Below are positions 13,871 to 62,499 of a stretch of 64,000 nucleotides of DNA, in pieces; positions within the stretch are counted from its first letter, which is position 1, and each line of letters begins with the position of its first letter. The notes beneath the pieces were generated by a model. The model did not search any database. It worked only from the letters and a program-made list of their open reading frames with translations, and had not been told where the DNA came from. The stretch is from Schmidtea polychroa (lineage: Eukaryota). The translations under genes were made by a program, and so were the position numbers. The DNA lies in the NCBI GenBank assembly GCA_044892525.1, contig CM097886.1, forward strand, positions 129,270,001-129,334,000, given 5' to 3'.

Positions 13871-14199
13871 TAATCGATAATCATGTAATCGATAAATTTG
13901 TTTGTTGTAGGTAGTTAGTAGCCAATGCAGCTCGACCATCCGGTGTATCCCCCCCTAAAAAAAATTGCTGCAGTAGCCATTTTTGTGTTTATTGGTTACA
14001 TAATTGCTGCAGAGGGCTACGCTTATTTTCCTGGGATTTTCAATACAAAAAAGCCAAAAAAAAATCAAATTTTATTTTATGAAATTCAACTGGCCGGTCA
14101 AGGCTGAAGGCGAGAATTTCTCACTCTTATTTATTCTAAGGCTTTTATTTTCAAATCTTATGAACGCTAGAGCATGAGCTCAAAGCGTTAAACGTGGTT

Positions 14200-15270
14200 T
14201 CTTAGGCATTTGGTTTGAATTTTTTGGATATTTTTGAAATTTGATGATTGAATTGCAAGATCCGTCCGGAAACTTGGATAAGTTCAAGTTGAATCTCGGA
14301 GTAGGGGGCTCGCATATTCAATATCTAAAAGATTAAGTTGGGTGGAGTTGGAAGACTCCAGTGGGAAGCGATGATATTAAGTGAAGGTATTAGGTTAGAC
14401 ATGATTTATGAGTTTATGTAGTTTATATTATTGTTAAAATGGGTCACACTTTCTGGTAGGTGGTATTAAAGATACTTAAACTTAAATGTTTAATAGTAGT
14501 ATTGGTGTAGGTTGAGTAGCATTAGATAATTTATGGTATATTGATTTTGACATTGTGGTTTGGGTATTAGTGTTAGGTGGGATAGATTTAGTAGTATCAG
14601 TTCGGTTGCTAGGTTTAGATTTATTATTAATTATAGTTTTTTCAGTTCTTTTATTATCAGTTAATTTATTGTCAGCAATACTACAGGTTATGGGTTTAAG
14701 TACTTTAAGGGTATTTTCGAAGTCATATTTTGTCCAATTTTTCCTCTTCTACGCTGAAAAATATCTAAGTCACTCAAAGGTTCAATAGGTGTAGGCATCT
14801 TGGTTTGGTTACAATGTAGAGTTGGTTCATTGATTGATAAAGCCTGGGCTATAGGTGCAATAATTGAGTGAGTATCATTATATAATTTATGGTCTATTTG
14901 AAAGGCAGGATGAGACGTCTTGATTACGGTTTGGGAATTAGCAATAGTAATTTGGATAGATTGATTATCACTATGTGATTTATATTTTTCTGAAAATTTA
15001 GCGTTTGGTATGGTTCTGCTGGTAATGATGACATATTATTGATAGATATATGGGAGGCTATTACAATAGGTGAATTGGTTTATAGTAGTGGGGTCTGGGT
15101 GAGTTATTTATGTTAAAAATTGGGATAGTAACGCGCCTAGGTTTAATTCTGGTAGTTATTGGTTTTTTGTTAATTTGGATAGGAAGTGAAGACTTAGAGT
15201 CGTTTATGGTTAGTGGAATGGGTTTGGAATAGTGTGATTTTGGTGAGCTATTGATGTTCAAAATAGGGGA
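14200..15270 (-). mobile_element. Probable LINE reverse-transcriptase C-terminal relic
   Basis: Minus-strand IEYASPL...IQKIQTKCLR resembles the LEYASPVW...IQNKxLR motif of CR1/Jockey/L2 ORF2. Heavily decayed. Confidence 0.4.
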
Positions 15271-15999
15271 GGGTTTAATCCTATTAAAAAGGAGTTTTTA
15301 AGTTGTTTTTGCTTATAATTTAATATCAAAAAGTAGTCAGTAATAATATTATAGTTACTTCTCTTAGGATAGTATATAGGTTAATATATAATTATAGTAT
15401 ATTATATATGTGTATATATATAGTGAAGTAAAGTTATAAGGGTTGGGCGAGTTTGGTTCTACGTTAGAAATAAATGGCAGTGCATGGTACGGTTTTACTG
15501 GGTCTAGTAATTTAACAAATATTTAGGTATTTATGGTTAATGTTATCAAAAAAAATTTCATAAGTATTGAAAGGGTAGAATTCACGTTTAAGTTAAAACT
15601 GGATATTGCGAATAAACATTTAAATTGTATATGTCAGATTACATAAATTTTTATATAAATATTTAAATTAATAAATTAAAGTAAGTTTAAAATATAAAAA
15701 TAAATTAAAATATATTAAATATTAAAATAAATTAAACCAGCATTGAAATCAGGATCAAAATTAAAATAATAAAAAGCCTCGAACAGATTGTTTGAATATT
15801 ACAAAAAAGCGCAGTTTTGTGAATAAAATAAATTTAGTAATTTTATTTGTTTAATTTATTAATTATGGAGATTGAGAATGAATTCGACGTTGTTGCGGCT
15901 AACAAGTATCTAGAATATCATGTTTAGTATAATTTGTATTTAAAGTAGTAAATTAACTTTCAATATCTAAGATTAAAAATATAGTTATTACTTTCATTA

Positions 16000-16396
16000 A
16001 ATTTAATATTCATGGTAGGGGTAACACTTTTTGTGAGTAGGCTCATCAGTAATCTGCTCCTCATGTTTGCCCATATTCGTACTTTCAACTTCGAGTCGTG
16101 AGACGTCAGGTTCAGGTTCTTGTTGTTTTCAGTATTCACATTTTGGTCATTTCTTGTTAACTGTTCAGTCTGTTCAAACTGTTCTAATTCTAAAACTGGT
16201 TCTCCTGGCGGAGATGCAGCTGCTGTATTAGATCCCTTATTGCTGCCAAAGTCAGTTGTATTACTTTGATGAGTTGGGTCAAGTGCACTATCTGATGGTT
16301 TTAAAAATGAAAATATTGTCTTGTAGGTCTTAGCAGCTTCCCAGCCAGTTTCTTTTGCCGTCTTTTACAAGCACCACTTTCAAATTTTCTTTTCAT
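16000..16396 (-). mobile_element. hAT (ZMYM1-like) transposase N-terminal relic
   Basis: MKRKFESGACKRRQKK start is typical of this hAT clade. A frameshift follows and no catalytic motifs are present. Confidence 0.35.
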
Positions 16397-16416
16397 CAGT
16401 AATTTACAGAATTTTA

Positions 16417-17014
16417 TGTTACGGTAAATGTACAATCTTGGGAAATGTACACTTTTACCGTAAAATGTGTACATTTCCCAAAAAGTTAGGTATAAGTGAA
16501 CTGAATATGTACATTTCCAGGCAAATGTGTACACCTGCCTTTACGTTTTGGTAAATGTATACTCTTACCTTCGTATTTTAAAGCACCAGCACCAACTATT
16601 ATCCCAATGTAATGTAATTTTAATTATATGTGTTGAAGTGTAATATTCTTTATTTACTATTTACATTTTACATTACACTCATATATATTTATAAAAGAAA
16701 AAAAAGACTTGAGCTTTTACACGAAGCGTACGTGTGGGGTTTGGCGGGGGTTGAATGTACGTGTACCCTTGTGAGCAGTACCCTTTGGGGGTCAAATTAT
16801 AATTTCGGATAGTCCAGACTATATATATATTAAATTTCGTATTTTGTATGCTCACATTTACCAAAACGACATGGTCATTGTGAATTCAATGTACATTTCC
16901 CTTATTTGAAATTGTAAATGTTAGTTGAATGCACATTACCCAAATGAGGAGGCTTATGTGCACATTTACCGGAAAATGTATACATTTGCCACAATATCTA
17001 CTTTTACCGTAACA
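16417..17014. mobile_element. Foldback/MITE-like element with modular TIRs
   Basis: Termini TGTTACGGTAAA / TTTACCGTAACA flanked by TA, with many AAATGT(A/G)CAC/TACATTT subrepeats in both arms. Confidence 0.6.
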
Positions 17015-17049
17015 TATATAAATTATAAAGATAAACCATATAATATAAA

Positions 17050-17617
17050 TTATAAAGACAAGAAAAATATTCGAATGAAACTGAAATAACTTTAAATGTA
17101 TTTTAAATAAATGATTACAGAAAAAGAAGAAAAAAGACTGTCTAGACATCAAGTTCTATTTGGAAGCTGAAATTTATAGATTTAAGGCAAGAAATAGAAA
17201 ATAATGAAAAAAAAAGATTAAATGAAGAAGAATACGAAAACATGAATAATATGTTGTTGAAGACATGGTGTTCGCTCCCAGAAACATTTAATGAAGAAAT
17301 TGTCTTTAGCTATTCTAACATTATTTTCATCAACGTATAGCTGTGAAAGTCTATTTTCGATTATTAATAATATAAAATCTGATGTACGAAACAGACTTAC
17401 CGATGAATGTGGGGAGGCTTGTATTTCATTAAAATTGTCAAACTATGATCCGGATATTGATGCATTATCGAGAAATATTCAGCAACAAAAATCCCATTAA
17501 AAAACATGTCAGCATATTATAGAAATGAATCTATATATAATTTTTAAAAGCATGTATTTTCATTTAATAAAAATAATATTTATTGGCACGCAGTCAAAAA
17601 AAGGTTCGCCATCCCTG
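17050..17617 (+). mobile_element. hAT (Buster/GTF2IRD2-like) 3' fragment with right TIR
   Basis: ORF 17291-17500 (FSSTYSCESLFS...RNRLTDE...Y.PDI) is a dimerisation domain. Terminus GGTTCGCCATCCCTG at 17617 is followed by GTCTAGAC, which fits the Buster nnnTAnnn target. Confidence 0.8.
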
Positions 17618-19643
17618 GTCTAGACTCTAGACAGAAATGACGTAATAATAAGTTTTTGACATAAATATAATTCTATATGTCGGACTCGCACTTATATTAA
17701 TATTTATTAAAAGCATTTATATACAAAATTTTAGGCTCCTTTGATGTATAAAAAGAGAGTTATCAAATTGTTCTGTTCGGTAGCAGGAAATGTATTCTGT
17801 ATATGATTTCATTAAGTTGATAGTGGTTTTAGAATCCATATCTTTTGTTTGCAAGGATTTACTTACAACATTTATACGTTGAAGTATTTTGTACCACGTC
17901 ACTAACATAACTAAGAAAGAATACTCGCAAAGTTTTCTGTTAATGTTAAACATTCATGTTTAGTTGCTACATCAGCAGAATTTTCATGAAGTATTATTAG
18001 TACATCATAAATTTCAACTATTTGAAACCTCCTAGATTTTATACATTCAATCCAGCTCTCCCAGCGAGTTTCGCATACAGTTTTAATAGTGAAATTAAGA
18101 ACATTATATGTTAAAATTTTCCATCTAGCTACAGACGCCAAAAATAATATATATAATAGTTTTATTACACCAAAAAAGGATATTGCATGAGGACAAGACA
18201 TTGATGCCTCTCCTATAACTAAATTTAATGAATGGGAACCACAAGGCATGTAAAATGCTCGTGGATTTTCTTGAAGCAAGCGTGCTTGTACATCTTTACT
18301 TTTTCCTCGCATGTTGGAGCCATTATCATAACCCTGCCCTCTAATATTGTTAATATTTAATTTTAATTCAAATAGTTGTTGTTTAGTTTTATCAAATATA
18401 TATTCACCAGTGGATTCGTTTATTTCGTAAAAAGAAAATAAAATGTTCTTGAGCGACTACAATAGATTCAGTTAAATCTACATAGAGTTACTCTTTATGG
18501 TTAATATCAGGTGTACAATCTAGTATAATAGAAAAATATTTGGCCAGTTTGATTCGCTCTATTAAATTTTCGCGAACAGATGATGCCAAAAAATTTATTA
18601 TTTCGTTTTGAATTGTCTTACTGCAGTAAGTTACTCATGTTTCATGAGATAGAGTTCCCCATGCATGTTCGTGCCTGACTACATCATATTTACTTAATAA
18701 TTCTACCAACCCTAAAAAATTTCCACTATTTTTAGTAATTAACTGATCTCAAGATCTACGGAAAGCCAAATTATTCATTGATAAAATAATATAATATTGT
18801 AGAGCACATTTTTTCAATGTTCTTTTTCTTTACCAATCATCTACTGCAATTTTTTGTCAATTTCTTTATTTTTGTGGAATCTTGCGGTTTTTTCAATCAA
18901 CTTAAAATGATTTTTGATATGCTCAGATGCATTTTCATGTTTTTTTTACAATAGTCATTTTTATGCTTCCAATTGGAAAGGCACTTTCTTCCCAACGCTG
19001 TCACTTTATTAGAATAAAATATTTTACAGCAAATACAATATGCTGGGTCTTGGGTCGGGTCAGAAAATTATTCCTTTCGCACTAGGGGTTGATAGTCCTA
19101 ATTGCACAAGCAACACTGCATCATTCCACAGGACCCTTAACCAAAACCCACACGATCACACTCCGAACAAGACACCCATGATTTACATCATGTTGGCACT
19201 GTGCCATGTCGGCGAGCTACGATGGAGCAGGTGAGCCCCTGCTTTAGGACTACTCCCCCAATCGCAACTCGACTTAACCATCACTCGACTGCCGATAGAA
19301 GGTCTTACGTCATATTCAACATTCTAAGATCTCATGCATCATTTTACTTTGTCATCAAACTCTACTACGACACTCAACACACTAGTTTCGTCTTATTTAG
19401 CGTTCAACAGCAAGTTTTACTACATTACCATCATTTTTATCCTTCCTACACTCAGTCTTACCATATCCCTTCCACGTCTTAGTTCCATCACTCACTATCC
19501 CATCCCCTAATCAGCCATTCATCATGCTCAAGCATTCAACATCGTTCAATTTGACAAGTCACAATAAAGAAAAATGTATTGACGAATTATTACATTAAAA
19601 GTACATTGATAGGGCCACAATTTGTGAAATATCGCAGATACAA

Positions 19644-20400
19644 TCACAGAGTGCTTGGAGAAGTTCCAGCGAAGATCTCATCGAGATCGAAAAAATCTTT
19701 GGCGTTTTCTTCCCATGAGGAGTCGACGGGCGGGACTACCCGGAAGATAGGAAGAGAATGCAGGGTGGATTCTACCGGAGGTACTGGAGCTGGCGGTTGA
19801 ACAGAGGCGATCAGGGCCGCTTCTCTTTCGGCCTGGAGGGCCCTTCTCCTTTTAGTACGCTCAGCCCTAGATGGCTGGCGACGCTTCTTGATCTTCTTCA
19901 CCTCCGGAAGAGTGACCGGGGTAGTCAGATCCACTATCCTGGGGTCAGCGCGACTTGTGCCGGTGCAGACGACTTCGGCTAGGATTGCCGGTTGAGAAAT
20001 ACTGGAGTGGCTTAAGTTGACCTGGTTCGATGGTTTCACCAAAGAGATACCTGAGAGATGATGGGACGGGAATAAATTGTCTTCTTCCGCGAGTGGAATA
20101 TTGACTATCTTTCTTGTGACCGATGCTTGAACGAACACTTTGTGTAACGCCTCGGACTGCTCTTTAATGAGGGCATGCAAAGCGCGGTTTTCCTCTAGTA
20201 CATCATCGCGGCATTTTTCCACTCGGGTGAGTCTCGTCCTCACCTCTTTCATTTGAGTGGGGGAAAAATGTCCCCTCTAAGTGATCTGACTTCTTCTTGA
20301 GGAGGCCAATTTGTGCTTGTAACGTTTGAATCATCTGATTTTTATCCGAACAGGAAAAGCACGGGCGCAAGATCGTGGCATTGGTTGAAGCTTTTGACAT
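19644..20400 (-). pseudogene. Orphan ~251-aa element ORF, copy 1 (2-nt deletion frameshift near 20260)
   Basis: ORFs 20203-20400 and 19644-20252 join into the reading frame that is continuous in copy 2. Contains PCFSC, a heptad-rich region, a basic KKIKKRRQ...KRRR tract and an acidic/aromatic C-terminus. Confidence 0.75.
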
Positions 20401-20525
20401 TCTAGAAATGTAAATGTTTGCATTAACCCTATCATTCCTCTTTATCTCCCAACGTCATCCATCATACCTCGTTACATCATTTCCCAATCATGCCGAGCAT
20501 TCGTCAATCAGTAATACACTGATGT

Positions 20526-20790
20526 TCATAACAACAATAAAATGATGACACTCACATCGACCATAAAGACCACATCAACAACGATATTCAGACTCATGTT
20601 AATGATAACGACAAGAACAACAATCGTAACAATCACCATAATAACGACAACACAAACAACAACATCAATCGTAATAGTATTCCTGATAATGATAATGATG
20701 ATCATAATAATTATGATACTAATAATAATAATAATAATAATCATAATAATAATAGTAATGATAGCAATAAATGCAGTAATAGTCATAGTT
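20526..20790. repeat. Degenerate ATA/ATC/AAC triplet microsatellite inside element copy 1
   Basis: Visible triplet periodicity. Absent from copies 2 and 3. Confidence 0.85.
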
Positions 20791-22576
20791 CATGGGGACC
20801 CCGTGTCTACTTCTAATACACTGAGAAAAGAAATGTCAGAGTTCATTTACTTTACTTGAAAATGGTACTTCCCCACTTAAGAATTACTTTAATTACTTCG
20901 ACTTTTATTATATCAATCAACTTAATTTTTATATCCGATAAGTGAGAATTGTAAATTTTTGGTATTTTAGATATTATCAGCTCAGGTGTTAACTTTATTT
21001 GGAGATGAAATTTTTCTATGCGCCATCTACCGAGTTTGGTGTTTGTGTAATCTCACTGATGACAGACAGATTATCGGCGATTGATGCCTTACGTATACGG
21101 TGGGAATGGTCTTGTGTGGATACAGATGTGGCGATTAACTAATTTCATCGTCGGCTCATGCGTGTGTAGTTATCACAAATGCTAATTTTATGTATGCGGA
21201 TTTTTGTATCCGAGTATTATCTCAATGACTGCTTATCTCGTGTGAATGATCGTCTGTGTCGATGTTACTTTTTATTCACTGAAATATACCAGTTGTGAAT
21301 GAGTAGCCAAAGTGGCTTGTAATTTTTGTGGTAGTTCTATTGCCAACATCGTACTGGAATTAGTGTGGATTTTTATGTGATAATTTAACTTCGATCTGCT
21401 AAAATTCAGTTTCCGGTAACACAAGTACGAGTGGGATTTCTCGAAGCAGTCAAACCTAGCGTAATACGTTTGTGAAATACGAATATGAAGGTTACTTGAA
21501 CTCAAACCTTATTTAAATTTAAACGATTAATGTTAGATGGAAATTCATGGTTTATCGGTGAAGATTGAAATTCACTATAACTTGCTGATTTCGCAACTTT
21601 GGTCGACTTGATTATCAATGGTGGAGACTGTTTTGTTCGTTAATAAGACAAATAGATATGTTGGATCTCACGCAACGTACCAGAGTTATAAGTCGCGAGA
21701 GTCGGAAAATAATTCCTGTATATCAACTAAGTCGAAGGCTTTGTTAGTAGAAATTCATCGTGTCATTGATTTAACTAATATAACATAATCGACGCAGAAT
21801 TTATGGTTCATTGATGAAGATAGTGCTTCCACTTTTCATTACTACGCTGAGTGTTCTGAAAGAGCGTCGATTCTACTGGAATAACGATCGAATTTATGAT
21901 GTAAAGCTTAAGTTGACACGATATATGAATTTTGGTAGGAATTGCGATGACGATAATGAAAATCAAGAGATAATAACTGCCCGACAACATCCGACGAACG
22001 AGGATTGGATCACTTTAGTCATTGCGAAGATTGTTCCACACTACTTTCACGAAATTTTCTATGTTTCCTATACATTATCCTGCTCTATTACTTTTTGACT
22101 TCACCTTTCCTGCGGTGACGTATCAGTGAGGAAACCCTCACGATGACCCGCTCAACCACCACGTCGCTGATGTTATACCTGACCTTCTGGCGAGAGGAAC
22201 CACCCGTGTCCCTCAAGGTGTGGCCAGTTGAACCTCAGAGGCGTTTGATATCAGAATTAAATAGTATATTATACGACTTATAATAGTTAAATTCCATAAT
22301 ATTTAATAAAATCTAAATAAGAATGCATTACAAAAATTTAAGATTTATTGGTGAACAGGAAAAACTACTAACAATTTATCTAAGTAAAGTTGTTATTATC
22401 ATTACTAGCTTAACAAAAATGTTATAATAAATAATCAATCTTTACCTCGTATAAGTTTGAATGGTTCTCCGAGTGATTTGTATATCTGATCCTTGAGTTA
22501 GTCCGGTATAGTATCTGCGATGTACCTTAATGAATATTTTGGTTAACACTGTTGAATGGAAGTTTGATGCTCTTAC

Positions 22577-22660
22577 CTTAATGAATATTTTGGTTAACAC
22601 TGAAAATTCTATTTCAGTGTTTTCCTTATATACTAATTTTTGTGTTTATGCGAGCCAATC
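22577..22660 (-). promoter_or_regulatory. CCAAT + TATA + Inr promoter and 25-nt leader ending in a splice donor (element copy 1)
   Basis: Minus-strand TATATAAG starts at 22632 and the TCAGT initiator A is at 22601 (31 nt spacing). Leader AGTGTTAACCAAAATATTCATTAAG|GTAAG. Same geometry in copy 2 (27944 / 27913). Confidence 0.6.
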
Positions 22661-23629
22661 AAAATTGAGTGCGGCATAATTTTTTTAATTTAATTCGTTT
22701 CCTTTGTTTTTCTTGGTTTTCTTGGTGTTTCCTTATTGTTTTCTTTTATTTTTTATTTATTTTCTTATTTATTATTTAATTTCTATTATTTTACTATTTT
22801 CTCTGGTTTCTACATCTTAATTTTTCGTTTTTTATTTTTTTTTGTTTTAATTCTCTTTGGTTAATTTTTATTATTATTCTTATTGTTTATTTGTATATGT
22901 TTTTAATTTGTTTTTCGCTTTGTTTCCTAATTTTATTTTATTTCTTATTGTTTTCCTCTTAGGTTTTTGAATTATTATTTTACTTTCTAGCCCAACAAAT
23001 ACATCTTATTCGTACTCACTGAATAGGCAAGCCACCTTAAATATTTTGTCCCATTTGCTGTTATTATACATGAAATTTGTAAAACATCGATTATTTGAAT
23101 CTCTAGGATAATTTGTCGACATTTGTATCTTCTAATAAATACGATGATAAAATGTGATCGCGAAAAGCTGAGGGCAAAAGAAAAGGCCATGTAGCTGGAT
23201 CATTATATTGAAAAATACTTTCAGAAATGTAGTCTACATTTTCCTCAGTATTTGTCAATTTTTCGACAGTTGTCATTTCTCTAACATCTGGTAATTGAAA
23301 TCTTTAGTTTCGTTTGAGTTAATAGCACTCAAATTTTTAACATTTTCATTTTGTGATGTACCTTTTCCAAAAGCATTATTAACCAAATTTGAAATAGATA
23401 CATTTGATTGTAGAAAGTTGGATCGATGTGTTGCACTTTCAGAAAATTCTTTCCATTTTTTACGGTTTTGCGATCCAGATAATTTTTTATCTTATTAGGG
23501 TTGAAAATTCCAAATTACTTCAAAAATTTTAATAATTAGAACATGGATTTTAAATATGGTAAAATGTAAAACTTACCAATGTTATTAAAATAAATTTCAG
23601 ATATAATAACTATTGTAGGTCTCGAAGGT

Positions 23630-24215: not shown

Positions 24216-24830
24216 CTTGTGCTGGGTCTTGGGTCGGGTCAGAAAAATATCTTCACATACCAGGTGTTGATAGTCCTATACGCACATGTAGCATGTCCTC
24301 ATTCCACGGGACCCTTAACCAAAACCCACACGATCATACTACGAGCATTACACCCATGATTCGCATCATGTTGGTACTGTGCCATGTCGGCGAGCTACGA
24401 TGGAGCAGGTGAGCCCCTGCCTTAGGACTACTCCTCCATCGCAACTCGACTTAACTATCACCGACTGCCGGTAGAAGGACTTACGTCATTGTCATCATTC
24501 TAAGATCCTATGCATCAACCCGATTGTCAACTAGTCTCCAACACGACACTCCATTCGCTGTTTTGACTTCATCTAATGTTCGACAGCAATTATTTACCAT
24601 ACTACCATTACATCGGTACTTTATAAATTCAGCCTTGTCATGGCCCTTTCGACCATTACCCTCATCGTTCACTACTTAATTTCACATTCGAAAAAATTCA
24701 ACACCAATCCAAACATTCACAATTATTTAATTTATCAATCCACAACAAGAAAGTGTATTTAAAAAACAACAAGATACATAGACGGGGTATGACAAGAGAT
24801 ACATTTGCGAGTGACAACCTGGGAGGTGGA

Positions 24831-25401
24831 TCACAAGGTGCTTGGAGAAGCTCCAGCAAAGATTTCGTCGAGATCGAAAAAATCTCTAGCGTTTTCCTCC
24901 CAGGACGAGCTGGTGGGCGGGACTACCCGGAAGACAGGAGGAGAACGATGGGCAGGCTCCGTCTGTACAGATGTCTTCGGCTGGAACCGTCGGCTGGGAA
25001 ATATTCAAATGGCTTAGATAGGCCTGATTTACTGATTTGGTCAATGAGATCCCCGAGAAATGGTGGGTCGGGAATAGATTGTCCTCTTCAGCGAGTGGAA
25101 TATCCACTATTTTCTTAGTAACTGACGCTTGCACATACACCTTGTGCAGTGCTCCCGACTGTTCTTTGATTAGAGTGTGCAAAGCGCGGTTTTCTTCTAA
25201 TACGTCGTCTCGGCACTTCTCTACTCGGGTGAGTCTCGTCCTCACCTCCTTCATTTGTGCTGTGGAGAAATAAGTCCCTTCTAAATGATCCGATTTCTTT
25301 TTCAGGAGGCCATTTTGGGTCTGGAGAGTCTTTATCAGCTGATTTTTATCAGTGCAGGAGAAACATGGGCGCACGACAGTGGTGGCTGGAATCTTGGACA
25401 T
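24831..25401 (-). pseudogene. Orphan element ORF, copy 2 (internal ~175-nt deletion with frameshift)
   Basis: ORF 24886-25401 matches the copy 1 N-terminal half. The alternative frame to the TGA at 24831 encodes FRVVPPTSSSWEENARDFFDLDEIFAGASPSTL, matching the copy 1 C-terminus. Confidence 0.75.
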
Positions 25402-27252
25402 TTCTAAAACTGAAGGAAATTCTGTTAAAAATTAAGCCGTGTCTAGCAAGCTCACAACCACTACCATACTCATTGAGTATTACTCAATCAAACGTCACTT
25501 CATTGTAAAGGGAAATCATAATAGCTTAACCGAAAGATCAATTCGACCACATAAACCGTGCACCTACCAGAAAACTTCGGAATCTGGATAAATTACGACA
25601 ATCAGAAATTTCGCTAAAGGAGAATTTGGTCAAAAACCATTTTAAACACCTATGACATTCATGGGCGGGTTCCCGTTTATTACTGGGAAGTGAGCTATTC
25701 CCCAAAAAGTCAGACATGTTAAATTATTAAATTAAACATTTATTATTAAAGTAAATTTATTTATAAATTGAATTTTAGAAAAATTGACATTTGTGCCGTT
25801 CGATCGTCATTCGCGATCTTATCGGTGTAAAGTTGGTCAGCGGTCGTGTTCTATCATCATCGTACAGTTCGGTTAAATTCTCAGTGTGATATCATGGTGT
25901 GGTTAGTTTACGTGATATGTGAGTCTACGCCTCGATTCGGTGTGATTGGAATGCTGGTGGGCTTATCTGTTTTTCTAGTGCAGTCGCTGTTCATGTCGCT
26001 TTCATTATCAATCGTTTTTGTCTAAACGGTTTATCTATGCACGACCTTATGTGTGATTATGATAATTGTGAAAAAACTATTGTGGATTCTCACCAGTATA
26101 CGTTCGGTTAATGTCACTACCGAATAGTCGCCTTATTAAACAACCAAATTGACAAAGTTATCGGCCATGCCGTTCAGAGTGTCTAAACAGTTTGATTTTA
26201 CCACTGGGTATTTACCTAAAAGTAAATCATTAGTTGGTGGAGGTTAAGTTATTCTGAACGATGAGTTACTTGTATCGAGACTCGGTCTTTCGGTCTATTC
26301 TACTCCTAGTGTTCCTCAGCATAAGTTCACTGGTTCAACCTGGTTTCAACTCGAAATTGTTATCCGTTCTATGGCGATTTGAGTACCGGTGACGATTTTC
26401 GGCGAAAGTAGCAAATTTACTCAATTTATGATCCCTACAGCTCTAAGATAGTCTTGCCGTACATGACTTTCAGACGACTCAAAAACGACGATGGACATTA
26501 GATGCTCTATTTCTCTGAAATGGCACGAGACGAGTGACGTTTCCGCTACCTTACTCATTGCGAAGATTCACGATTAATCATGCTGAAAAATTATATTTAT
26601 ACTCCTTTCAATTTTACCATTTCATTTTTCCCTTTACGATTTTTAATTCATACTTCTTCCTCTGGTGACAGATCAGTGAGGAAACCCCCACGATGACCCG
26701 AGTTCAACCACTGCGCCGCTGAAGTAACATCCGACCTTCTGGCAAGAGGATCAACCAGTCTCCCTCAGCTGTGGCCAGCTGAACCTCAGCTGTGGCCAGC
26801 TGAACCTCAGCGTCGCGTAATACGTATGTCATCATTAAAGCATAATTCACTACACTCCTTTGATCAAATATTATGTAAAGCATATATGAAACACTAAAGA
26901 ATAATTTACTGAAAAATTTTCATCAATACTATAAATTTAATTAAAGGTGAACAAAGAAAATTCGAATCTCATCATAAAACTTTTAATTTAAATTAGATTG
27001 GTTTACACTACATCTTAAAATACCAAATTAAAATTTAACTTTTCTAAATTTCCCAATGTTGCTCCTTGATAAATCGAAATCGTTGAATCCCCTTGTGATT
27101 TGTGGTTAACGAATAAATTGCTTCGGAATTAGTCCTATCGATTGAAGTTGTTGATCCTTGAAATGTTTAGTTCACCTTAAATAATTGCTGGGTTAACACT
27201 CTGAAAACTTTTCTAAAATGCATGCTTACCTTAAATAATTGCTGGGTTAACA

Positions 27253-27903
27253 CAGTGGCGTATCTAGGGTTCACGGCGCCCGGGGCAAAACTTAAAATTG
27301 CGCCCCTCTCCACGTGAATTTTTTCTTTTCCTTATTATTGGTATATTATTTTTGCACTAAAGTGACATTTTTTTTTAAGAAAAAAAAATTATTATTTAAA
27401 AAAAATCAAAAATTTTCACTCTTTAAAATTGATTTGCAGCAGTTTTAAAAAAAATTAATTTAATTTTGCAACAAGTTAGTTTTAAACTTTATTTATTGTA
27501 ATAATTTACAAACAAATTTTTCGTGCTTTAACACTTGCGAACTTGTCAATGACATCATCAAAGTTAATTTTGTTCACAGTGTTTTTCTCAATACTTAATA
27601 ATGCCAAATTATTTAAACGTTCTTCACTCATTGTTGCTCGAAGATATGACAAAATTAATTTTAATTTGCTAAAGGAACGCTCGCATGTTGAAACAGAAAT
27701 ACCAATTGTCAAAAGAATTTGCAATGAAATTCTTAAATTTGGGAAAACATCTTCACCATAAGATATTAAAAATTTTAAAAGATCTATAGGTATTTTGGAA
27801 TTTCATCTTTTCGAGCATTAAGAAGCATTTTACAGTCAGTAACTTCATTGCATAGTTCGTTTTCATCAAATGCCCCGCTTGCCCGGCCCTAGATACGCTA
27901 CTG
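27253..27903 (-). mobile_element. Internally deleted hAT element (651 bp) with ZMYM1-like C-terminal fragment
   Basis: 17-bp TIRs CAGTGGCGTATCTAGGG / CCCTAGATACGCTACTG (16/17 match) and 8-bp TSD GGTTAACA (27245-52, 27904-11). ORF 27506-27724 (CERSFSKLKLI..YLRATM.EERLN.LALL) is a dimerisation domain. Confidence 0.95.
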
Positions 27904-28519
27904 GGTTAACACTGAAAATTTTATTTCAGTGTCTCCCTTATATACTTAATTTTGTGTTTATGCGGACCAATCAATATTGAGCGCGGTGTAATTTTTTAAT
28001 TTAATTCGGTTTCTTTGTTTTCCGTAGTTTTCTTGGTGTTTCCTTATTGTTTTTATTTTTTATTAATTTTCTATTATTTTACTATTTTTTCCGGTTTTCT
28101 TATCTTAATTTTTAATTTTTTGTTTTAATTCTCCTTAGCTAATTTGTTATTATTTATTCCTATTGTTTATTTGTCTGGATTTTTAATTTATTTTCGATTT
28201 GTTTCTGATTTTTATTTTATTTCCTCGTGTTTTCCTCTTATGCTTTTTAAATTATTACCTTTCCTTCCAGCCCAACACTTGTTTAAACATAAAAAAGAAT
28301 AAGATTGTACATTACAATAACTAATAATAAAGATAAATAAAAATAATTAGCACAAAAGTACGATATTTTTTAAATCAACAGGTTTGTTTTACACATTTCG
28401 TAAATATATATTAATATATATTTGTTGTCACTAGCAGAATATATCGAATACTGACGAAACATGAAAATAAGCACGTCTAAACAAGTTTATAAACGGTTAA
28501 ATTTTTATAGCTTCATAAA

Positions 28520-30386: not shown

Positions 30387-30480
30387 GTCCACAACACCTC
30401 GTATTTCCAGGCGGTCACCCATCCAAGTACTAATGAGGCATTAACCTGCTTAACTTCCGAGATCGAACGAGATCGGGTGA
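30387..30480 (-). rRNA. 5S rRNA copy lacking its 5' ~25 nt (probable pseudogene)
   Basis: Minus strand CACCCGATCTCGTTCGATCTCGGAAGTTAAGCAGG...TTAGTACTTGGATGGGTGACCGCCTGGAAATACGAGGTGTTGTGGAC followed by a T6 Pol III terminator. The upstream bases cannot form the terminal helix. Confidence 0.85.
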
Positions 30481-38650: not shown

Positions 38651-38675
38651 TGAATTTTTGGCAAATATGTGATTA

Positions 38676-54016: not shown

Positions 54017-55339
54017 ATAAATTTATTCTTTTCCACTTATTATATTTCTCATGATTTTCATATTAGTCTTTGTAAGACTGGATCAAAACAATATATAAGT
54101 TACAAGATATTTTGTCACAGCCTACTGCGTATTTCTTGTTAGATAATATAAATAAAATTAAAAAGGTCATAAAATGATAGGGCTTTATCTTTATTCATTT
54201 CTTACATCCTAAAGCTTTTATATTTAGATGTTTGATATTTTCAATAATCACATAATTTTCACGGTTTTGAAAATCATATTTTGTAACTATAAAATTAATG
54301 CTTTAAAATAACTGCCAGAAATTGTAAATAACATTTAAAAAAATGCTTGGAACAAAAAAAATGCAATACAAAATAAGTAATTTCATTTATGACCAAATCG
54401 AAGTTAAATTGATGATCACAGGTCACCAAATAAAACCTTTCCATACATTTGGAATGTTCTTCAACTATTAGCAATTCAAAAATAAATTTGCATTTATTTT
54501 AAGTAGTATTAGTACTGATGATTTAGAAGATAAAATTTTATGCTCATGATATGATGAGTGAGAATGATAGAGATAATGACATAAGCCTCTGATTATCAAA
54601 TAATCAAGTATTTTGATTCTTAACTTATTTTGCAAATAAGCTCGATTTTATTATTAAAACTTTTTAAATAATGGTTCCAAGTTTTTGCATTTATAATTGT
54701 AAAAAATATTTTGATGGTTGAGGTATTGTGAAATTGAATGATGATATTGCTCAAAATATTATATATATATATATTTTGGAAATTGTTTGTTTTAATAATA
54801 CATTTGTTGCAGTTTCCCCTTCAGTTGATGCGATTTCATTAGATAGGCTAGGTGTTCGCAATTGTAGATAACCAATTCTGTTAACATCTTTCACTTATCT
54901 AACTCCTCGCCGTCAACTGTTTAAGATTCCTCATGACTATTTCACATAGGACGCGGTGCCCATGGAAGTTGCTCCATGTTGGTACTGCTTCAAGTCGTCG
55001 AAAATTTATAAGGTGAGCTGGTGTCCTTACAACTACTTCTTGATATTTCTGTACGGGTTCTGGGAGACCGATAGAAGTCTTATCCTCGTATATGATTCGT
55101 GTTAATATATATGCAGATAAGCAGATAAGCAAAAATCTCTGGTCCAATCGAGATTATTAAACTTTCTCTACTTAGTTATGAAATAATTAAATCACTGAGA
55201 AGTTATGAAAAAAAAATTAAAAGACATAAAATATCAATATGTACTGCAGGTGAAACTGTACAAATAGATGAGCAAGAATCGAAATTTATCACCAATAAAG
55301 TCAATTCGCACTCTGAAACATGTAGCAATAGGTTGAGGT

Positions 55340-56091
55340 GACTGCAGATAATCATTGCCTAGATGGAGAAGCTTGGTCATTCCATCTCTCCTATTTTAGC
55401 GGCTCAAAACTCATTCCCTTCTACTTCTCGGAGCAGACGATCAGTTTCTCCTTCAAGTTGTGGGTCTTCCAATCATGGAGTGCCGACAGCTGGTATCACT
55501 CTATAGTAGTTCAGTTATTGCTTGAGTAGCGATGAGTCCAGTCTTGGTTGGAAGGGATCCGAGAATAGCGCGGCTTCGACAGCGGCTAACTCATCCTTCT
55601 TGAGCATAGAACGCTGCACTGGTGTGAGCTTCCTTCTTTTCGGGCGATTGATTGGGTTAGAAGTGGATGGCATGGCAAAAGGTGCAAGCGTTACTAGTTC
55701 CAATGTAGACAATATCCGGTGCGGGTGAAGTAGAGACAGGTGGTTCTTTTAGATGGCTTGGAGTCATCTGGCAAGTGATGAATTGGAAATATATTGTGTG
55801 TGTCAGAGATTGGACATTTCGTGATGCGTTTGCGTAACTCGGACTCGGATGAGATTCGATGCAATATCATTGATTGTTCTTTGATAATGAGTCTCTGATT
55901 TCTACTCTCTTCTAGCAGGTTATCCCTGCAATATTCTAGCCTCAAGAATTTACGATTTGCCTCCCCTCCATGTGGTCAATACGTTTTGTCAGACTCCTGA
56001 TCTCCAATTGCACCTTTCTCATCATTGCATTTTTGTCTGCGCATGAAAAACACGGTTTTACGCCAGACTTGGTTAGAGTTGGTTCCGAAAT
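55340..56091 (-). pseudogene. Orphan element ORF, diverged copy 3 (multiple frameshifts, ATG position reads ATT)
   Basis: VKPCFSCADKNAMMRKVQLEIRSLTKRIDHMEG, RLEYCRDNLLEE..IKEQS, NIFPIHHL, RPKRRK..EAAL and RVIPAV align to copies 1 and 2. Confidence 0.75.
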
Positions 56092-56699
56092 TTTCTATAA
56101 ATGAGACATTTAAGAATGAATAAATCATATTTTGGATGATTAGTCCGTCGACAAAGGATACTGCATTCACTACAGTGTTCTCATTTATACGTCAAAAATG
56201 GTTCCAACGAAGTAAAGATCAATTTCACCGGGGGATGACGACAACATTCAGGGTATTATTAACATTTAATCCTATTGTTAAAAATCATTTTATCTACTTA
56301 TTAAAAATCTATTGATATAATATACATTTATTTATTAAAAGTTTTACTGTTACCAGATTTATTTACTTATCATCTTTTACTTATCATTTGTCTTTATCCT
56401 ACTTATCCACTTGTTAATATTTTGTTAATACGATGTTTATTATACATTTATAGTTTATTATTCTTTGCCAACATTTACTGCAACATTTATTTACTAAATA
56501 TCAGTCTTAAATGTGGAGCTCTTTTCAGATCGTCAGTCCTAGAAGTTTTTGGATAGTCATTACCTCACTATTTTTAATTAACAAGATGATCACTTCCGAA
56601 GTTGGGTTAAAACTAGCATTGACGAGATTGAACGTCCACAATACTGGTTTATCAGAACAATACGTTTGCCATTTTAATCTTTCCCAGCATACCTTAGAG

Positions 56700-56912
56700 C
56701 AGTGGTTCTCAAAGTGTGGGTCGCGACCCACGATGGGGTTGTAGAAATTTCAAGAAAACGGAAGATTGTAACTAAAAAAAATATTAGGTTGGCTTCAAAA
56801 TAAAATATTTTTTGAATATAATAAATATTTTATTTTATATTACTATTTTCATCGACAGAATATTTGCTAGGGTTAATGAGGTCGCTAAGTAAAAAAGGTT
56901 TGAGAAGCTCTG
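56700..56912. mobile_element. hAT (Charlie/Buster-type) MITE, 213 bp
   Basis: TIR CAGTGGTTCTCAAA / TTTGAGAAGCTCTG, 8-bp TSD CCTTAGAG (56692-99, 56913-20). Confidence 0.9.
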
Positions 56913-58131
56913 CCTTAGAGAGTAGTAATAGCAATGAAAGATGCAAGACTGGCAGGGAAGGCTTCGCTGGGCAGCGATGACCCATTTAAACATGGTGGCG
57001 AGTTTCATTTGGATTATAGTACCAGAACTACCGTATCATAAGTTTAATTGAATCAGTTTGATATATTTACATTTCTCAACTGCTACTGTCGTGAGATAAA
57101 ATTGAATTGAGGTTTCTAAGTGTTATCAGAGGTTATAAACAAATGTGCGGTGATACCATAAATTTAATTAATCTTGGAAAGTTTCCAAGAATTTCCAAGT
57201 TAATTCGGCCAGCGCTAAATAGATTGTCGACCTGATCTCAATCACTCTCGCCTTTTGGCTTATTAAAACCCTTCTCTCGAGATATTGTTTACCTATCATT
57301 TGTCGGTCTGCAACTTTTATTTGCATTCAAGGTGATGTCGATTTGCTAGATCGGAAACCTTTTGTTGATTTGACAAATATCAGAGTAACTTCGTCTATCA
57401 TATGAACTGATTAAATATTCTATGCAATTCCATAAAATCTCAGGGAAACATGATGCTAACGACTATTATCATCTTATACTTATTTCAGACGACTCATTCA
57501 ACGGGAATGATATTCTATCACCACTTTACAAAAAAGAATCTATACCATTTCTCCTGCCGGAATTTTCATCATCAATTTCGTCATTGTACCATACTAGTTT
57601 CCCTATCAATACTATGAGTTGAAGATCTTAACTGAACTATACACTACTCTGAATTTATGATAATTACTGCTATTGATTCGATCTATATTGTTCCACGTTC
57701 TCATTTAGTCGATTAACCGAGTTTCTACGATGGAGTTCCTAATCGCTCCTACTGGATCTTATCTCGACTTCCAAAAACTCTCTACATTCAACTTAGATTT
57801 CCTATTACTATACTCAAATCGGTCAAAATGAACTCTATATTCTATTAACAATCCTATCTCTGACTTCATAAAACAGTGCGCCAAACTGTCCAACACCCGC
57901 TGTCGGATCAGCACGAGTGCCAATGGTTCACGAACATCTTTCAATCTGGTGGCATCAATAAATCAGCAAAATCATAAAAAATGAATCATCCATAAAATCA
58001 TAAAATCCTTGAAAATTGTTATAATTACTTCTACTTTTAATAAAATATTCATAAAATTGTGAGAGGAAAAAGAAAGTTTGTTTGTTTAAAAATTGTTATA
58101 GTTATAAATACAATACTTTACTACTAATATA

Positions 58132-60684
58132 CACCTAATTCTGTTTTTACGCGAATTTGATTTAACGCGATTCAAAAAATTATTTCGTTCTGTTTTTACA
58201 CGATTTGATTTGATTTAACGTGATTAAAAAAAATTCATTTTTTAACAAGAAAAAACATGTATGTACATGTATGTACATAATTCTTTATAGTTTACTGCTA
58301 ATTTGTAGTTTAGGTTTAAAACAATTTCTATTTTAATGTATGTACAATAATCAAAATTCTGAGGTGAGAAAACAAAAATATTTACATTGACATGTACCTT
58401 TATTTTTCTAAAACATTTGAATTTTTTAAAGTTATTCGATAATAGGTGTTATAATAGGTGTTTTAGTATAAAATACCAATCCAAATTTGGTATCAATTGC
58501 GTTTGAAGATTTTACCAAGAGATTTATACAATTCCTGAATTCAATTAACGGTAATTTATAATTTGAAGTGCATTTATTTATTACCTGCAAATAAATTATT
58601 TTTATAGGGACCTCATTACAATTAACAATGTCAGCTAAAAAACAAACGAATAGAAAAGCTATTTCTTTGGAAGTTAAAATCAAAATTTTGGATAGACTAG
58701 CCACTGGAGAAGGTGCCACTTCTGTAGGAAAATATTTTAATTTAAAAGAATCTACCATAAGAACAATAAACAAAAATGAAGAAGCTATCAGAAAATCTGT
58801 GATTGCTGGAACAAATATGAGTGCTCATACATCATCATACACAAGAGACATTGTAAAAGAGAAAATGGAGAAGGCTCTTGTAATATGGATGAAGGATTGC
58901 TCACAAAAACGAATATCAGTTGACGGAAATGGCATAAAGCAGATGGCATTACGTATCTATAAGCAGATGAAAGAAATGGAACCACAAACATCAGGCCAGA
59001 GAGATAAAAAATTTGAATTTTCTGCAAATACAAGTTGGATGACAGGTTATCAGCAAAGGCACGCGCTGCATAATATAAAAATTAGGGGTGAAATTGCATC
59101 TGCAGATGAGGTAGCAGCCAAAGAATTTCCCCAAAAATTGGCTAAAATAATTGAAGAAGGTGGCTACACTGCTGATCAGGTATGGAATGCAGATGAAACC
59201 GGCCTTTTCTGGAAACGAATGCCGAGCAGAACATACGTAGCTAAATCCCAAAAAATTGCAAGTGGGTTTAAAGTAGCCAAGGATCGTGTGACCTTTTTAT
59301 TTTGTTCTAACGTTTCAGGAGATCGAATGCTAAAACCTTTACTTGTAAATCGAGCTCTAAAACCACGGTCAATGAAAGGTGTAAATTTCAGTACATTGCC
59401 AGTTCACTGGACAGCTAATAAAAAAGCTTGGGTGACAACTGAGACTTTTAAGGAGTGGTTCCTCTATATCGCCGCTATATGAGCGATAAAGGTCTTGAAT
59501 TCAAGGTTCTGTTGATTATAGACAACGCACCAGGTCATCCCCATATGGAGCATCCAAATGTCGAATTTTGTTTTTTGCCACCCAATACTACTTCGTTGAT
59601 ACAACCACTGGATCAAGGAATTATAGCAACCTTTAAAACCTATTATGTTAAGCAAACATTCCGGTATATTTTAGATCAATTAATGAATGATGACAATTTA
59701 AAAGTTATGGACGCGTGGAAGAAATTTTCTATTAATGACTGCATCAAACATGCTGGATTAGCGCTATCCGAACTAAAACCATCAACTTTAAACGTATGTT
59801 GGAAGTCCCTTTGGCCGGAATGCGTCCAAAATAAAGATCCGATACCTTCTAATGCAGTCGAGTTTAGCAATATCATAGCCTTAGCTCATGAAGTAGGCGG
59901 AGAAGGTTTTGATGATCTATCGTCTGCAGATATAGAAGAACTATTAGTGGATACGGTACTTAGCAGTGATGAAATCATTGCTTTTGCGCTTGAGACACTT
60001 GATGTGCAAGAAATTAGCGAAGATGACGACGTAGAGGTTCCTACACTCACCGCAGATCTAATTAAAGAAGGACTTCAACTAGCAGCTAAATTAAGCGATC
60101 ATTTTGGCAAGCATGATCCTATTGAGGAAAGAGCTCGGAAATTTCAACGTGACGTGAAATTATTAATGGGAAATTATCGCGAATTACATAACAGCATTAT
60201 CAAACCCAGACAACAACAATTGATTACTGAATTTTTGCTAGAACCGCTAAAACATCAACACCACTTCAACATGAAAATGAAGTGGAAAATATTTCTAGTG
60301 ATGGCAGTGATTGTGGCGTTCAAGTCTCAAGTAAACGAATACGTATATCATCAGGAAGTGACAGCAATTAAAAAATATGTTTAATGATATATTTTGCCAC
60401 TTTTTGTTTTACTAAAATGAATTTTTTGTGATTTTTTTGTTAAATAATGAATTTTCTTTGTTAAATTAGTATTTTTTTTTGTTTGTCGTTATTTTATTAA
60501 TAAATATATATTTAAATAAATAAAAGTGTATAAAACACGTAAAAACCATGAATTTGTATACTTTAATCACATTATTTTAGTTGATTTTGGAAATGAAGAA
60601 CCAATCCTCTACTTTTATATGGACACCATATCTTTTTTTACGCGTATTTTCGGGGAACGTATCGCGTGAAAACAGAATTAGGTG
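58132..60684 (+). mobile_element. Full-length Tigger/pogo transposon (2553 bp)
   Basis: 23-bp TIRs CACCTAATTCTGTTTT(T/C)ACGCGA (22/23 match) with TA on both sides. Confidence 0.95.
58628..60384 (+). pseudogene. Tigger transposase split by one frameshift near 59470
   Basis: ORF 58628-59482 (HTH psq/CENP-B, WNADETGLFWK) and ORF 59455-60384 (LLIIDNAPGH...IQPLDQG, DD29D spacing by count). Confidence 0.9.
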
Positions 60685-62499
60685 TACATGAAACATTTCA
60701 CATTCAAAATCAACAAATATAATCACATTTTTCCGAGATACTGGCTCAAAAGGTTAAACTGGATCTATTCGATTTATACTTCTCGATTAAATTGGTTCAA
60801 AATGTTAAATAGATTGATTTGATTGATATTGCTTGATCTTAACTTGGAGAACCTAATGTAAAGTAAGAAATATCATTTTAAGAAAATTCATTTCCTTAAT
60901 GTAAAGTAAAAAAGAGCATTGGGAAATCCATCTCTGATGCTCGTATATATACGGGTTTAGCTACGATCTTATCCAATCAGGATTAAGTATTGGTGCAATT
61001 TGTACATTTTTTGTATTTTATTTATTATTTTAATGTTAGGCTTTTAATTAATTAAATTTTGTTTTATTAATTTATTTTTTTAATTATATTTTCCTCGATC
61101 TGATTTATTCCTATTTATACCCTATTTTGTTGCGTATTTTCTTAATTTTATTTAGTTTAATTATTTATTAATTTCCTTATTTTATTTTATTTTATTTTAA
61201 TTATTATTATACAAGTTATTATTCTTATATTCGTGTTGAAATTCATGTTGAAATTCCTAGCTGAGAAAATACAAGATTCTATGTTAAAATAATAGAAATT
61301 AAAATCCAAAGTTTTTCTCAAAAGGTGTTTTACTCGTTCCAGCCCAAGGCATTGTTGAGATCGTTTTATTTATAAAATTAAATCTTATTCTAACAGTAAT
61401 TATATTTACTTATTTACTATTAATTTCTGCAAAGTCTTTTTATATTGAACTGAATTTTGTCTCTGCCATCGTTCATCTCTTGATTAATCTACGATATTTA
61501 ACCTTTAAATACATTTGATGCATTAGCTCGGGTTTCCCATTATTTCTGGTTTTCTATTAGCTAATTAATTTTAGGTTTTTTATAATTATTTCTTTCTAGG
61601 GACCCCATTGACTTTATATTTATCATATTTGAACTCGACTCATTGTTCGGCATCCACCCATACCAGTTTCCCCCGGAAAATATTCATTTTAATTTTTTTT
61701 TATTTTTAATTAATATTTTATACTTTAAATTATTATTGTGATTTTGATGTTTAATTGTTTTTCACCTTGTTTTTGTGCCTGTCTCGTCGAACCCCAACAC
61801 ATTCATAGCAAGGTTTAGATGAATATTTTCCCTCTCAAATTTCTGTGTATTACACATATCTATAGGGCTATTATAAGGTCATAATTAATCTCGTTCAATA
61901 AGCTAGTATATTTGGTTATTCTATTCCAATAATTTCTAATCTGATCATGTTTTAATATAGCAAGTACACTATATAAAGCACATGTTGTCTGTAGTCTTAA
62001 TGTTCACTATGGCAGTTTTATTATACAACAATGATGGTGTTTGTAAATGGATGTCCAGATAATCGATTAATTGGAAAATATTTGCTCAAGATAAAGTCAT
62101 TGTCTTTAATTTTATTTATTCTCCACAAACTACCAAGATATGTAAATCTATCAATTTTATCGTTTAATTTTTGTAATCCTTTAATCAAAAAATCATCCGA
62201 GAAAACCTGTGCAGTATTTAAAAAATAGTCCCTAATTTTTTAATATTGGGTGAAAACTGTAAATTGTACTTTTACAGACACTATCTTGTTAATTTCTAAC
62301 GCTAGACGGTCATTAATTTTATGTCGAAGATATTTATAATTTGTAATATACTTCTAAAATATAATTATATTCATGAAATAACCGCTAGTTTATTTATACT
62401 TAAAAAAACTACTATAATTAGTCATTTTTAAATGCGTAATATGTTATTACATGATTTGTTAATATTTATCGTCGTTAGTAATATCTAATTTAGAATTTA

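Follow-up and report, generated by a model that had tools for sequence, protein, structure and literature searches.

Three long units in a 64,000-nucleotide stretch of Schmidtea polychroa DNA (the window), designated A, B, and C, are very likely lone long terminal repeats (LTRs) of giant Burro-type Ty3/gypsy elements, each carrying a broken copy of a conserved gene; splicing of this gene is predicted, and its product is likely a nuclear regulator. The lone LTRs themselves are likely leftovers of recombination. Their LTR identity and orientation, their 4-bp target site duplications (TSDs), and the tRNA-Pro primer site and gag-env-pol partners of their family were observed directly. There is little doubt as to the route: an element of ~30 kb would have integrated, duplicating 4 bp, and recombination between its LTRs would have dropped the ~22-kb interior to leave one LTR between the TSDs.

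Boundaries of the window copies

The element sense of A, B, and C is the minus strand of the window. The units and their parts are as follows.

19041..22997, minus strand: copy A, solo LTR of 3957 bp; sense TGTTGGG...CCCAGCA; TSD AATA at 19037-19040 and 22998-23001
19041..19340, minus strand: conserved 3'-terminal LTR block of A; in 5' LTRs the primer binding site (PBS) lies 7 nt beyond this end
22107..22238, minus strand: conserved GC-rich block of A within the predicted intron; 82% versus B 26657-26789
22464..22481, minus strand: 16/18 match in A to the reverse complement of the junction preceding 3' LTRs; A/B subfamily only
24220..28277, minus strand: copy B, solo LTR of 4058 bp including a nested insertion; TSD CTTG
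27253..27903, no strand assigned: terminal-inverted-repeat element nested in B, which we take to be hAT-like; 8-bp TSD
54805..61349, minus strand: copy C, solo LTR of a diverged subfamily; TSD CATT at 54801-54804 and 61350-61353
56700..56912, no strand assigned: short element nested in C; 8-bp TSD
58130..60686, plus strand: Tigger/pogo-like DNA transposon nested in C; DDE_1 and CENP-B matches
61520..61799, minus strand: outside C, initial ~280 bp of an unrelated ~866-bp gypsy LTR; 78-89% identity

The ends and TSDs of A and B are those given in the preliminary description. For C, the left end and the CATT flank were retained, but the right end, formerly put at 61799, had to be moved. Two C-type solos (L251 and L255), which start with TGTTGGGC and have TSDs of their own, align to C only inward of 61347; therefore, the right end of C was placed at 61349. 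Within the 450 bp thus removed lies the start of the unrelated short LTR, and 61799 was rejected as a terminus of C or of a Burro element. Minus its two nested insertions, C measures ~3.8 kb, with a damaged sense-5' terminus. L251 is collinear over the empty site of the Tigger/pogo-like insertion.

A and B share four blocks at 74-82% identity around non-alignable middles; C is related to them at the protein level only (39-41% by tblastx). The statement that no reverse transcriptase (RT), integrase, PBS, or LTR pair lies inside the units was correct, as was that on the lack of an enzyme ORF, once the transposon nested in C is set aside. A retrozyme or other RNA family was considered and rejected; an RNA-family scan of the window found 5S rRNA only. 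RNA structure in the last 300 nt was likewise rejected as a general trait, the z values being -3.0 for A and -3.2 for B, against a range of -0.2 to -1.4 for three relatives.

Full-length partner elements

Four full-length relatives (G8, H3, H4, and H6) are 29.7-30.8 kb long, and their paired LTRs of 3823-4201 bp differ at 1-6 sites. Like the window copies, they have 4-bp TSDs. The PBS, found 7 nt past the 5' LTR, is complementary to a genomic tRNA-Pro(TGG). These relatives represent sister subfamilies, in which the homologous sequence forms paired direct repeats around gag-pol. G8 and H6 match A/B DNA at 66-76% in blocks, and the LTRs of all four contain the ORF, equally far from the end and only 35-45% identical to the LTR-ORF protein P0001. 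No polypurine tract precedes the 3' LTR; a conserved non-purine junction ending GAGTGATT is present there. Genome-wide, 932 PBS-type matches and 659 3'-junction matches were obtained. One abundant family that shares the PBS has a 1644-bp LTR without an ORF. Hence, not every element needs the gene in cis.

Domain scans covered the ORFs of two elements (G6 and H4), where the polyprotein order was gag-env-PR-RT-RH-IN. Pfam matches in the partner elements were to Retrotrans_gag, zf-CCHC, a viral fusion protein, protease, RT, RNase H, integrase, ankyrin, and RING-MATH. The env-like fusion domain (PF24664; E values 9e-65 and 1e-72) was in frame between gag and pol. A Bcl-2-like motif gave a weak match below the cut-off (E=0.047), and Pfam showed no BIR, dUTPase-like, or ubiquitin-like motif in the scanned G6 and H4 ORFs. 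An RT search returned generic gypsy polyproteins and no named Burro; by their match to the described architecture, the partner elements are giant Ty3/gypsy retrotransposons of the Burro type known from planarians. The element type, a GC content of ~29%, and the four large contigs agree with a planarian host.

The ORF within the LTR

An ORF of ~250 codons lies downstream of a CCAAT-TATA promoter. It is broken in all three window copies, and many elsewhere in the family are still open.

19644..20400, minus strand: LTR ORF of A, ~252 codons; frame broken near 20263-20270
24831..25402, minus strand: LTR ORF of B; broken by an internal deletion near 24960
55772..56061, minus strand: alignable part of the broken LTR ORF of C; 42-52% to P0001

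The part in C also matches the ORF in the LTR of a full-length element (60% over 67 aa). The dN/dS values were 0.11-0.21 (dS above 0.1), falling to 0.04-0.10 in residues 12-120; the LTR ORF is under purifying selection. A second, antisense gene in the variable middle was looked for and rejected, there being no ORF conserved across subfamilies and none convincing in the young G8 LTR. An ORF within a gypsy LTR may be new, yet it may already be known.

The predicted protein has a CxxC motif, a coiled coil, a conserved arginine-rich helix, and an acidic-hydrophobic tail. A structure model placed helices at residues 15-42, 48-100, and 179-199 (pTM 0.32). No support for a function came from Pfam, folds, or named proteins: a word-index database held no homologs of P0001 or of a 20-member alignment, an Atlas search gave matches of at most 0.85, none named, and a viral fold search gave no match at E<=0.001.

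The protein is likely a nuclear regulator of the element, to be compared with Tat and Tas, the small regulators of complex retroviruses. As a best guess, held tentatively, it would be a transcriptional activator of the element. It is somewhat doubtful, though quite conceivable, that the protein is something other than an activator or an RNA-export factor. A Rev/Rem-like RNA-binding factor for export of the unspliced ~26-kb RNA appears rather unlikely. The conserved arginine-rich helix would suit such a role, and the Pfam REV model weakly matched this motif in 1/16 distant relatives (E=0.0013); however, that match scored 19.1 against a curated cut-off of 22 bits, and REV matched none of the 20 family members. 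Rem, Rev, Rex, and Rec do have such a motif, and Rem is made from spliced RNA (PMC2661877, in excerpt), but the acidic tail here, of the form hydrophobic-x-x-hydrophobic-hydrophobic, resembles an activation domain more closely than a leucine-rich export signal.

Promoter, predicted start site, and splice signals

The sole conserved CCAAT-TATA of the LTR is found at ~340-375, with TATA at ~365, and a TATA box is present at the equivalent place in 41/43 LTRs.

22627..22659, minus strand: inverted CCAAT box and TATA box of A; predicted start site near 22602
22500..22602, minus strand: ~51-nt unit of A repeated at the predicted start site; holds an AG/GT donor-like site at 22578-22572
27939..27971, minus strand: inverted CCAAT box and TATA box of B
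60944..60977, minus strand: inverted CCAAT box and TATA box of C

Since the predicted start lies ~395 nt into the LTR, U3 would probably be short and the ORF would lie in R/U5, with R and U5 together spanning ~3.5 kb. A 45-57-nt unit, in 1-3 copies, begins exactly at the predicted start in several clades. It is repeated there in 27/41 LTRs, and AG/GT is present in 37/41. A repeat that begins at the start site is what would be expected at the R boundary.

An improbable alternative is that these solo LTRs have their ORF in a long U3, like MMTV sag, in which case genomic RNA would come from a second promoter near the LTR 3' end and the TATA at ~365 would serve the LTR gene only. The best-conserved DNA block is indeed the 3'-terminal ~300 bp, poly(A)-like hexamers recur 95-135 nt past the stop codon of the ORF, and no 3.5-kb strong-stop DNA would be required. 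However, a TATA-like element was not seen in the 3'-terminal block, and the repeat at the upstream predicted start would suit an R boundary there.

With transcription starting at ~395 nt, splicing would quite probably remove ~2.1 kb, from a donor at ~420 to the AG that immediately precedes the ATG, and leave a short first exon; the intron would be the variable middle. In A, an acceptor-like AG is found at 20403-20402, directly before the ATG. The donor and acceptor signals are conserved among LTRs, as is the CCAAT-TATA, and splicing of the gene is predicted from such conserved signals. Loss of the GT-AG intron was seen in 0 of 24 pairwise copy comparisons; intron-loss copies were thus rejected as proof of splicing, and the small indels are copy-number changes of the ~50-nt unit. 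When one young LTR was compared with four contig runs, no joint appeared at the predicted intron, a result uninformative either way. It may be noted that one contig, from a run only guessed to be RNA, has a poly(T) loose end in the element interior.

Solo LTRs across the genome

The 41 stretches taken in comprised 39 genome loci along with A and B. Both ends were present in 36/41, giving 32 independent sites after collapsing. An exact 4-bp TSD flanked the solo at 30/32 of these sites; one site had a mismatch, one had no TSD, and none extended to 5 bp. This recurrence of ends and TSDs exceeds chance.

A single common flank followed the right end of the unit in 5/84 exact matches, and this flank is the 3' internal region. 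At five independent sites (L047, F1/F3, F5, G7, and H2), A/B-type LTRs lie directly next to the canonical 3' junction, with the interior beyond it. L047 is a B-type LTR with 2.2 kb of 3' internal sequence attached, and the sense-5' 640 bp of A shows 86% identity to the start of an LTR that adjoins internal sequence. Locus F1 is collinear, at 74-86% identity, with positions 12932-22100 of a full-length interior, through the integrase and ankyrin ORFs to an A-type LTR start.

The genome matches yielded no intact LTR pair for either the A/B or the C subfamily. Exact A/B end matches (n=58) had no common flank apart from duplicated loci, and the pattern of an A/B-type end plus PBS gave a single match, belonging to another family. 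Two matches with a PBS-like TGG after the A/B end were rejected as TSDs of solos, and two 24-kb TSD-bounded spans, considered as full elements, proved to be solos interrupted by nested insertions. Of the PBS-joined LTRs, the nearest (L201) has 82% DNA identity in the 3' block and no recognizable interior. A PBS was present at 0/30 C-type loci; C is tied to the family through its termini, layout, and ORF.

The preliminary description had offered two readings. That of an undescribed non-autonomous unit mobilized in trans by a gypsy-like integrase, here taken as a single 4-kb element using a Burro integrase, found no support and is very improbable. The predominance of stand-alone sites, the lack of an intact pair or PBS junction for the A/B and C subfamilies, and the numerous open ORFs would agree with it. 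Against it, A/B-type LTRs adjoin the interior at the five sites above, the sister subfamilies have plainly paired LTRs, and a lone LTR lacks the PBS that reverse transcription needs; moreover, gene-bearing solos far outnumbering full elements have a precedent in sag (490/527 contigs; PMC4667437, in excerpt). The other reading, solo LTRs of great length that carry an accessory gene of their own, with Burro as precedent, is supported by the relatives: the proposed check was run, and in the four full-length elements paired copies do lie on either side of a PBS and gag-pol. The units are real, yet they are not a new enzyme-free family. Ginger DNA transposons have long terminal inverted repeats and an integrase-like transposase, and a Ginger-like origin is barely conceivable, for despite the TG...CA ends and 4-bp TSDs the ends are inverted over just ~7 bp, a transposase is absent, and the same sequence is found as direct repeats around gag-pol.

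Comparison with known systems

If the reading as LTRs with a gene holds, a selected gene after the promoter in a gypsy LTR would entail ~3.5-kb strong-stop DNA and an added regulatory layer, one not described for these elements in the excerpts of the literature considered. A wider proposal, which we regard as speculative and rather doubtful, is that Burro-type gypsy elements have a complex-retrovirus-like regulator encoded wholly in the LTR after the promoter, so that each solo would be a promoter-intron-gene cassette, and full elements, perhaps host genes as well, might be provided with the protein in trans by hundreds of open-frame solos. In planarians, piRNAs target Burro elements (PMC8532177), which have also been reported to support regeneration (cited in PMC13465017); for these reasons, the LTR protein left in many solos is a testable candidate. 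Gene-carrying solo LTRs would account for long 'enzyme-free' repeats in such genomes, and caution in annotation is advisable, as the LTR-gene exon gets fused into predicted host genes.

Like Burro (GYPSM1) in the excerpt of PMC6431247, the partner elements have a length of ~30 kb, a gag-pol polyprotein of ~4,800 aa in which an env-like fusion domain follows gag and precedes protease, together with zinc knuckles, ankyrin, and MATH/TRAF; the match to Bcl-2 is weak. Unlike it, the two elements scanned here lack the BIR, dUTPase, and ubiquitin-like matches, and RING-MATH is a separate ORF downstream of the polyprotein. The Burro text of that excerpt does not mention an LTR-internal ORF. Plant Ogre elements, according to the same excerpt, also have multi-kb LTRs and additional ORFs of unknown function, but these are in the internal region.

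Rev, Rex, Rec, and Rem (PMC2661877, in excerpt) resemble the LTR protein in being small, made from spliced RNA (here predicted), and equipped with an arginine-rich motif; the LTR protein differs in having no significant sequence match to them, a long coiled coil, and a coding region wholly within the LTR. LTRs are ordinarily non-coding, the usual exception being MMTV sag (PMC4667437, in excerpt). As in MMTV sag and other betaretroviral LTR genes treated there, a protein gene lies within the LTR and is kept in solos that outnumber full elements, with a dN/dS below 1 that goes back to the phase of replication. Sag, however, is located in U3 and encodes a superantigen, whereas the present ORF is downstream of the main TATA, has no sequence relation to sag, and belongs to a gypsy element.

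Ends of the A/B-type units and of copy C

Three units flanked by target-site duplications (TSDs) fall into two subfamilies, A/B and C:
19041–22997, copy A
24220–28277, copy B
54805–61349, copy C, right end as revised here

The termini and TSDs of A and B were exactly those of the preliminary description, and four blocks of 74–82% identity are common to both. The genome was searched with the left 300 bp of A, and the best 40 of 868 candidates were scored; 10 kb was fetched round each of the 39 other matches, making 41 stretches with A and B. Both ends were present in 36 of these, representing 32 independent sites once duplicates were collapsed. The 4-bp TSD was exact at 30 sites, had one mismatch at another and was lacking at one (L047). 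Units with both ends measured 1.9–5.0 kb (median 3.95 kb), and their middles were of several mutually non-alignable types flanked by common ends. The right end was absent from five stretches, one of which (L019) was a solo interrupted by about 20 kb of nested sequence.

The right end of C had been placed at 61799, wrongly: there C matches, over about 280 bp only, gypsy elements with 866-bp LTRs. The pattern at 61799 has 904 genome matches (a purine tract precedes 30 among the first 100 listed), and three elements with this end are gypsy elements of about 17 kb with 866-bp LTRs, in which no trace of the LTR ORF was detected. Two C-type solos (L251 and L255) start with TGTTGGGC, each with its own TSD, and a third (L252), judged by its ends, has the same start and also its own TSD. 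Since L251 and L255 align with C only from 61347 inward, the right end of C is 61349; the terminus there is damaged, and CATT comes directly after it. With its two nested insertions taken out, C is about 3.8 kb long. The young gypsy family with these LTRs (L238–L246; about 17 kb), unrelated to the units, has 866-bp LTRs that are 99.8% identical, a purine tract and a 3437-aa ORF.

Other features of the window are:
30386–30505, minus strand, 5S rRNA, single match
30905–32464, 115-bp inverted repeats round broken transposase-like ORFs, presumably Tc1/mariner-like
38658–39478 and 46355–47175, repeats of about 820 bp, 97% identical, both carrying an eIF2-beta/eIF5-domain ORF that has no intron (Pfam E = 5e-32)
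63874–64000, third repeat of this type, cut by the window end, with an eIF2-beta/eIF5-domain ORF, likewise intronless

Full-length partner elements

One common flank followed 5 of 84 exact right-end matches in the genome; two of these loci are duplicates of one another (99.6%), and another is just a short remnant. The flank runs for kilobases, is coding on the minus strand and, at locus F1, is collinear (74–86%) with positions 12932–22100 of a full-length interior, through the integrase and ankyrin ORFs, being interrupted by nested elements only. Because this flank is coding interior of the full-length type, the element sense is the minus strand of the window and right ends are the starts of 3′ LTRs. 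Such A/B-type 3′ junctions were seen at five independent sites (L047, F1/F3, F5, G7 and H2). The ankyrin ORF of F1 (L084–L085) holds an insertion with a 525-bp flanking duplication, which we take to be non-LTR retrotransposon-like; presumed Polinton-like insertions lie close by.

When the genome was searched with the common flank, the best 40 of 594 candidates were scored and nine loci examined: G8 was complete, G6 was a tandem LTR–interior–LTR, and the others were disrupted. Three further complete elements (H3, H4 and H6) were found through primer-site loci. The four are 29.7–30.8 kb long, with 4-bp TSDs and LTRs of 3823–4201 bp whose pairs differ at 1–6 sites. The primer site lies 7 nt beyond the 5′ LTR and is complementary to genomic tRNA-Pro(TGG). 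No polypurine tract was found before the 3′ LTR in these elements; a conserved non-purine junction stands there instead. Genome-wide, the primer-site pattern matched 932 times and the 3′-junction pattern 659 times, the first 100 matches to each being listed. The 3720-aa ORF of G6 comprises gag, zinc knuckles, a viral fusion domain, protease, RT, RNase H and integrase, followed by ankyrin repeats; H4 also shows a weak match to Bcl-2 and carries RING-MATH in an ORF of its own.

The tRNA-Pro(TGG) gene pattern has 2218 genome-wide matches, and a long tandem array of the gene with a 475-bp period begins at G000:C1:130901010 (L233). A/B-type LTRs carry a 13–16 of 18 complement of the 3′ junction about 150 nt past the TATA box (in A, 22464–22481); it is absent from the G8 clade.

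A 15.6-kb element with 1644-bp LTRs (H5, G000:C1:5728807–5744373; also L193, L227 and L228) has a primer site and 3′ junction identical in type to those of the Burro-like partners, no LTR ORF, and a single long ORF with a zinc-knuckle match only. Its LTR end accounts for about 40 among the first 100 primer-site matches listed. This type is likely the real non-autonomous partner of these elements.

Relation of the complete elements to A, B and C

The complete elements are sister subfamilies of A/B, their ORF being 35–45% identical to P0001, the reference LTR ORF protein. G8 and H6 match A/B DNA at 66–76% in blocks; H3 and H4 gave no DNA match to A/B. No intact A/B-type LTR pair was found, and 58 exact A/B end matches had no flank in common beyond duplicated loci. 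The A/B end joined to the primer-site pattern gave one genome match, belonging to another family; the closest primer-joined LTR (L201) has no recognisable interior. None of 30 C-type ends had a primer site beside it. At the loci examined, the picture is in keeping with older subfamilies that survive as solos only. A, B and C are very probably solo LTRs of a giant element of known kind.

The LTR gene and its protein

P0001 (252 aa) is a natural open copy. A genome search with it gave 6494 candidates, of which the best 150 were scored; identity went down to 44%, and many were free of stops. Four of 47 distinct open ORFs, with shifted or altered tails, were left out, and the remaining 43 gave 903 pairs (671 saturated, 232 usable). 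For these 232 non-independent pairs, dN/dS was 0.38 at dS under 0.1 and 0.11–0.21 at higher dS; in residues 12–120 it was 0.04–0.10, again over non-independent pairs. The purifying signal reflects the replicating phase of the element, not selection on solos. Among 12 primer-joined LTRs, a clear ORF match lay within about 1.3 kb of the LTR end in five and a weak one, by profile, in two; none was found in the other five, the 1644-bp LTR family included.

Sequence signals predict a promoter and splice sites for this gene. Of 43 LTRs, 41 have a TATA box at 280–374 nt and an inverted CCAAT box about 27 nt upstream of it; an AG|GT donor-like site follows shortly downstream in 37 of the 41. Within about 15 nt before the ATG, A, B and the other, diverse copies inspected have an AG that comes after a pyrimidine-rich tract. 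Poly(A)-like hexamers occur 95–135 nt past the stop in many copies, not all. In 27 of 41 LTRs, a repeated unit of 45–57 nt begins at the predicted start site, its sequence differing between clades; this hints at a possible short R region. In one solo (L046), the predicted intron holds an insertion of about 900 bp with a small-GTPase-like reading frame, presumably Rab-like.

The protein matched no Pfam family, and neither P0001 nor the family alignment had a match in a word-index protein database. A full profile search returned 16 proteins at E ≤ 0.001 (P0002–P0017), none named, most of which join the LTR domain to unrelated host domains; these fusions probably stem from faulty gene prediction in a related genome, an annotation artefact. 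The proteins returned have kept an arginine-rich motif along with the helices, but not the CxxC. The structure model (pTM 0.32) has helices at 15–42, 48–100 and 179–199, the remainder being disordered. A weak REV match in one relative leaves some room for an RNA export factor. The coil may mediate dimerisation; taken with the basic helix and the acidic tail, which contains bulky hydrophobic residues, it suggests that the protein may be an activator.

Comparison with Burro

The LTR gene is under selection and apparently unreported, its function being inferred only. No account of an ORF in Burro LTRs was found in the literature searched; Grohme et al. 2018, Lee et al. 2026, the supplements, Repbase and Dfam may have one. 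As described in PMC6431247, Burro, a giant planarian Ty3/gypsy retrotransposon type, has the same layout as the partner elements G6 and H4, including an env between gag and pol.
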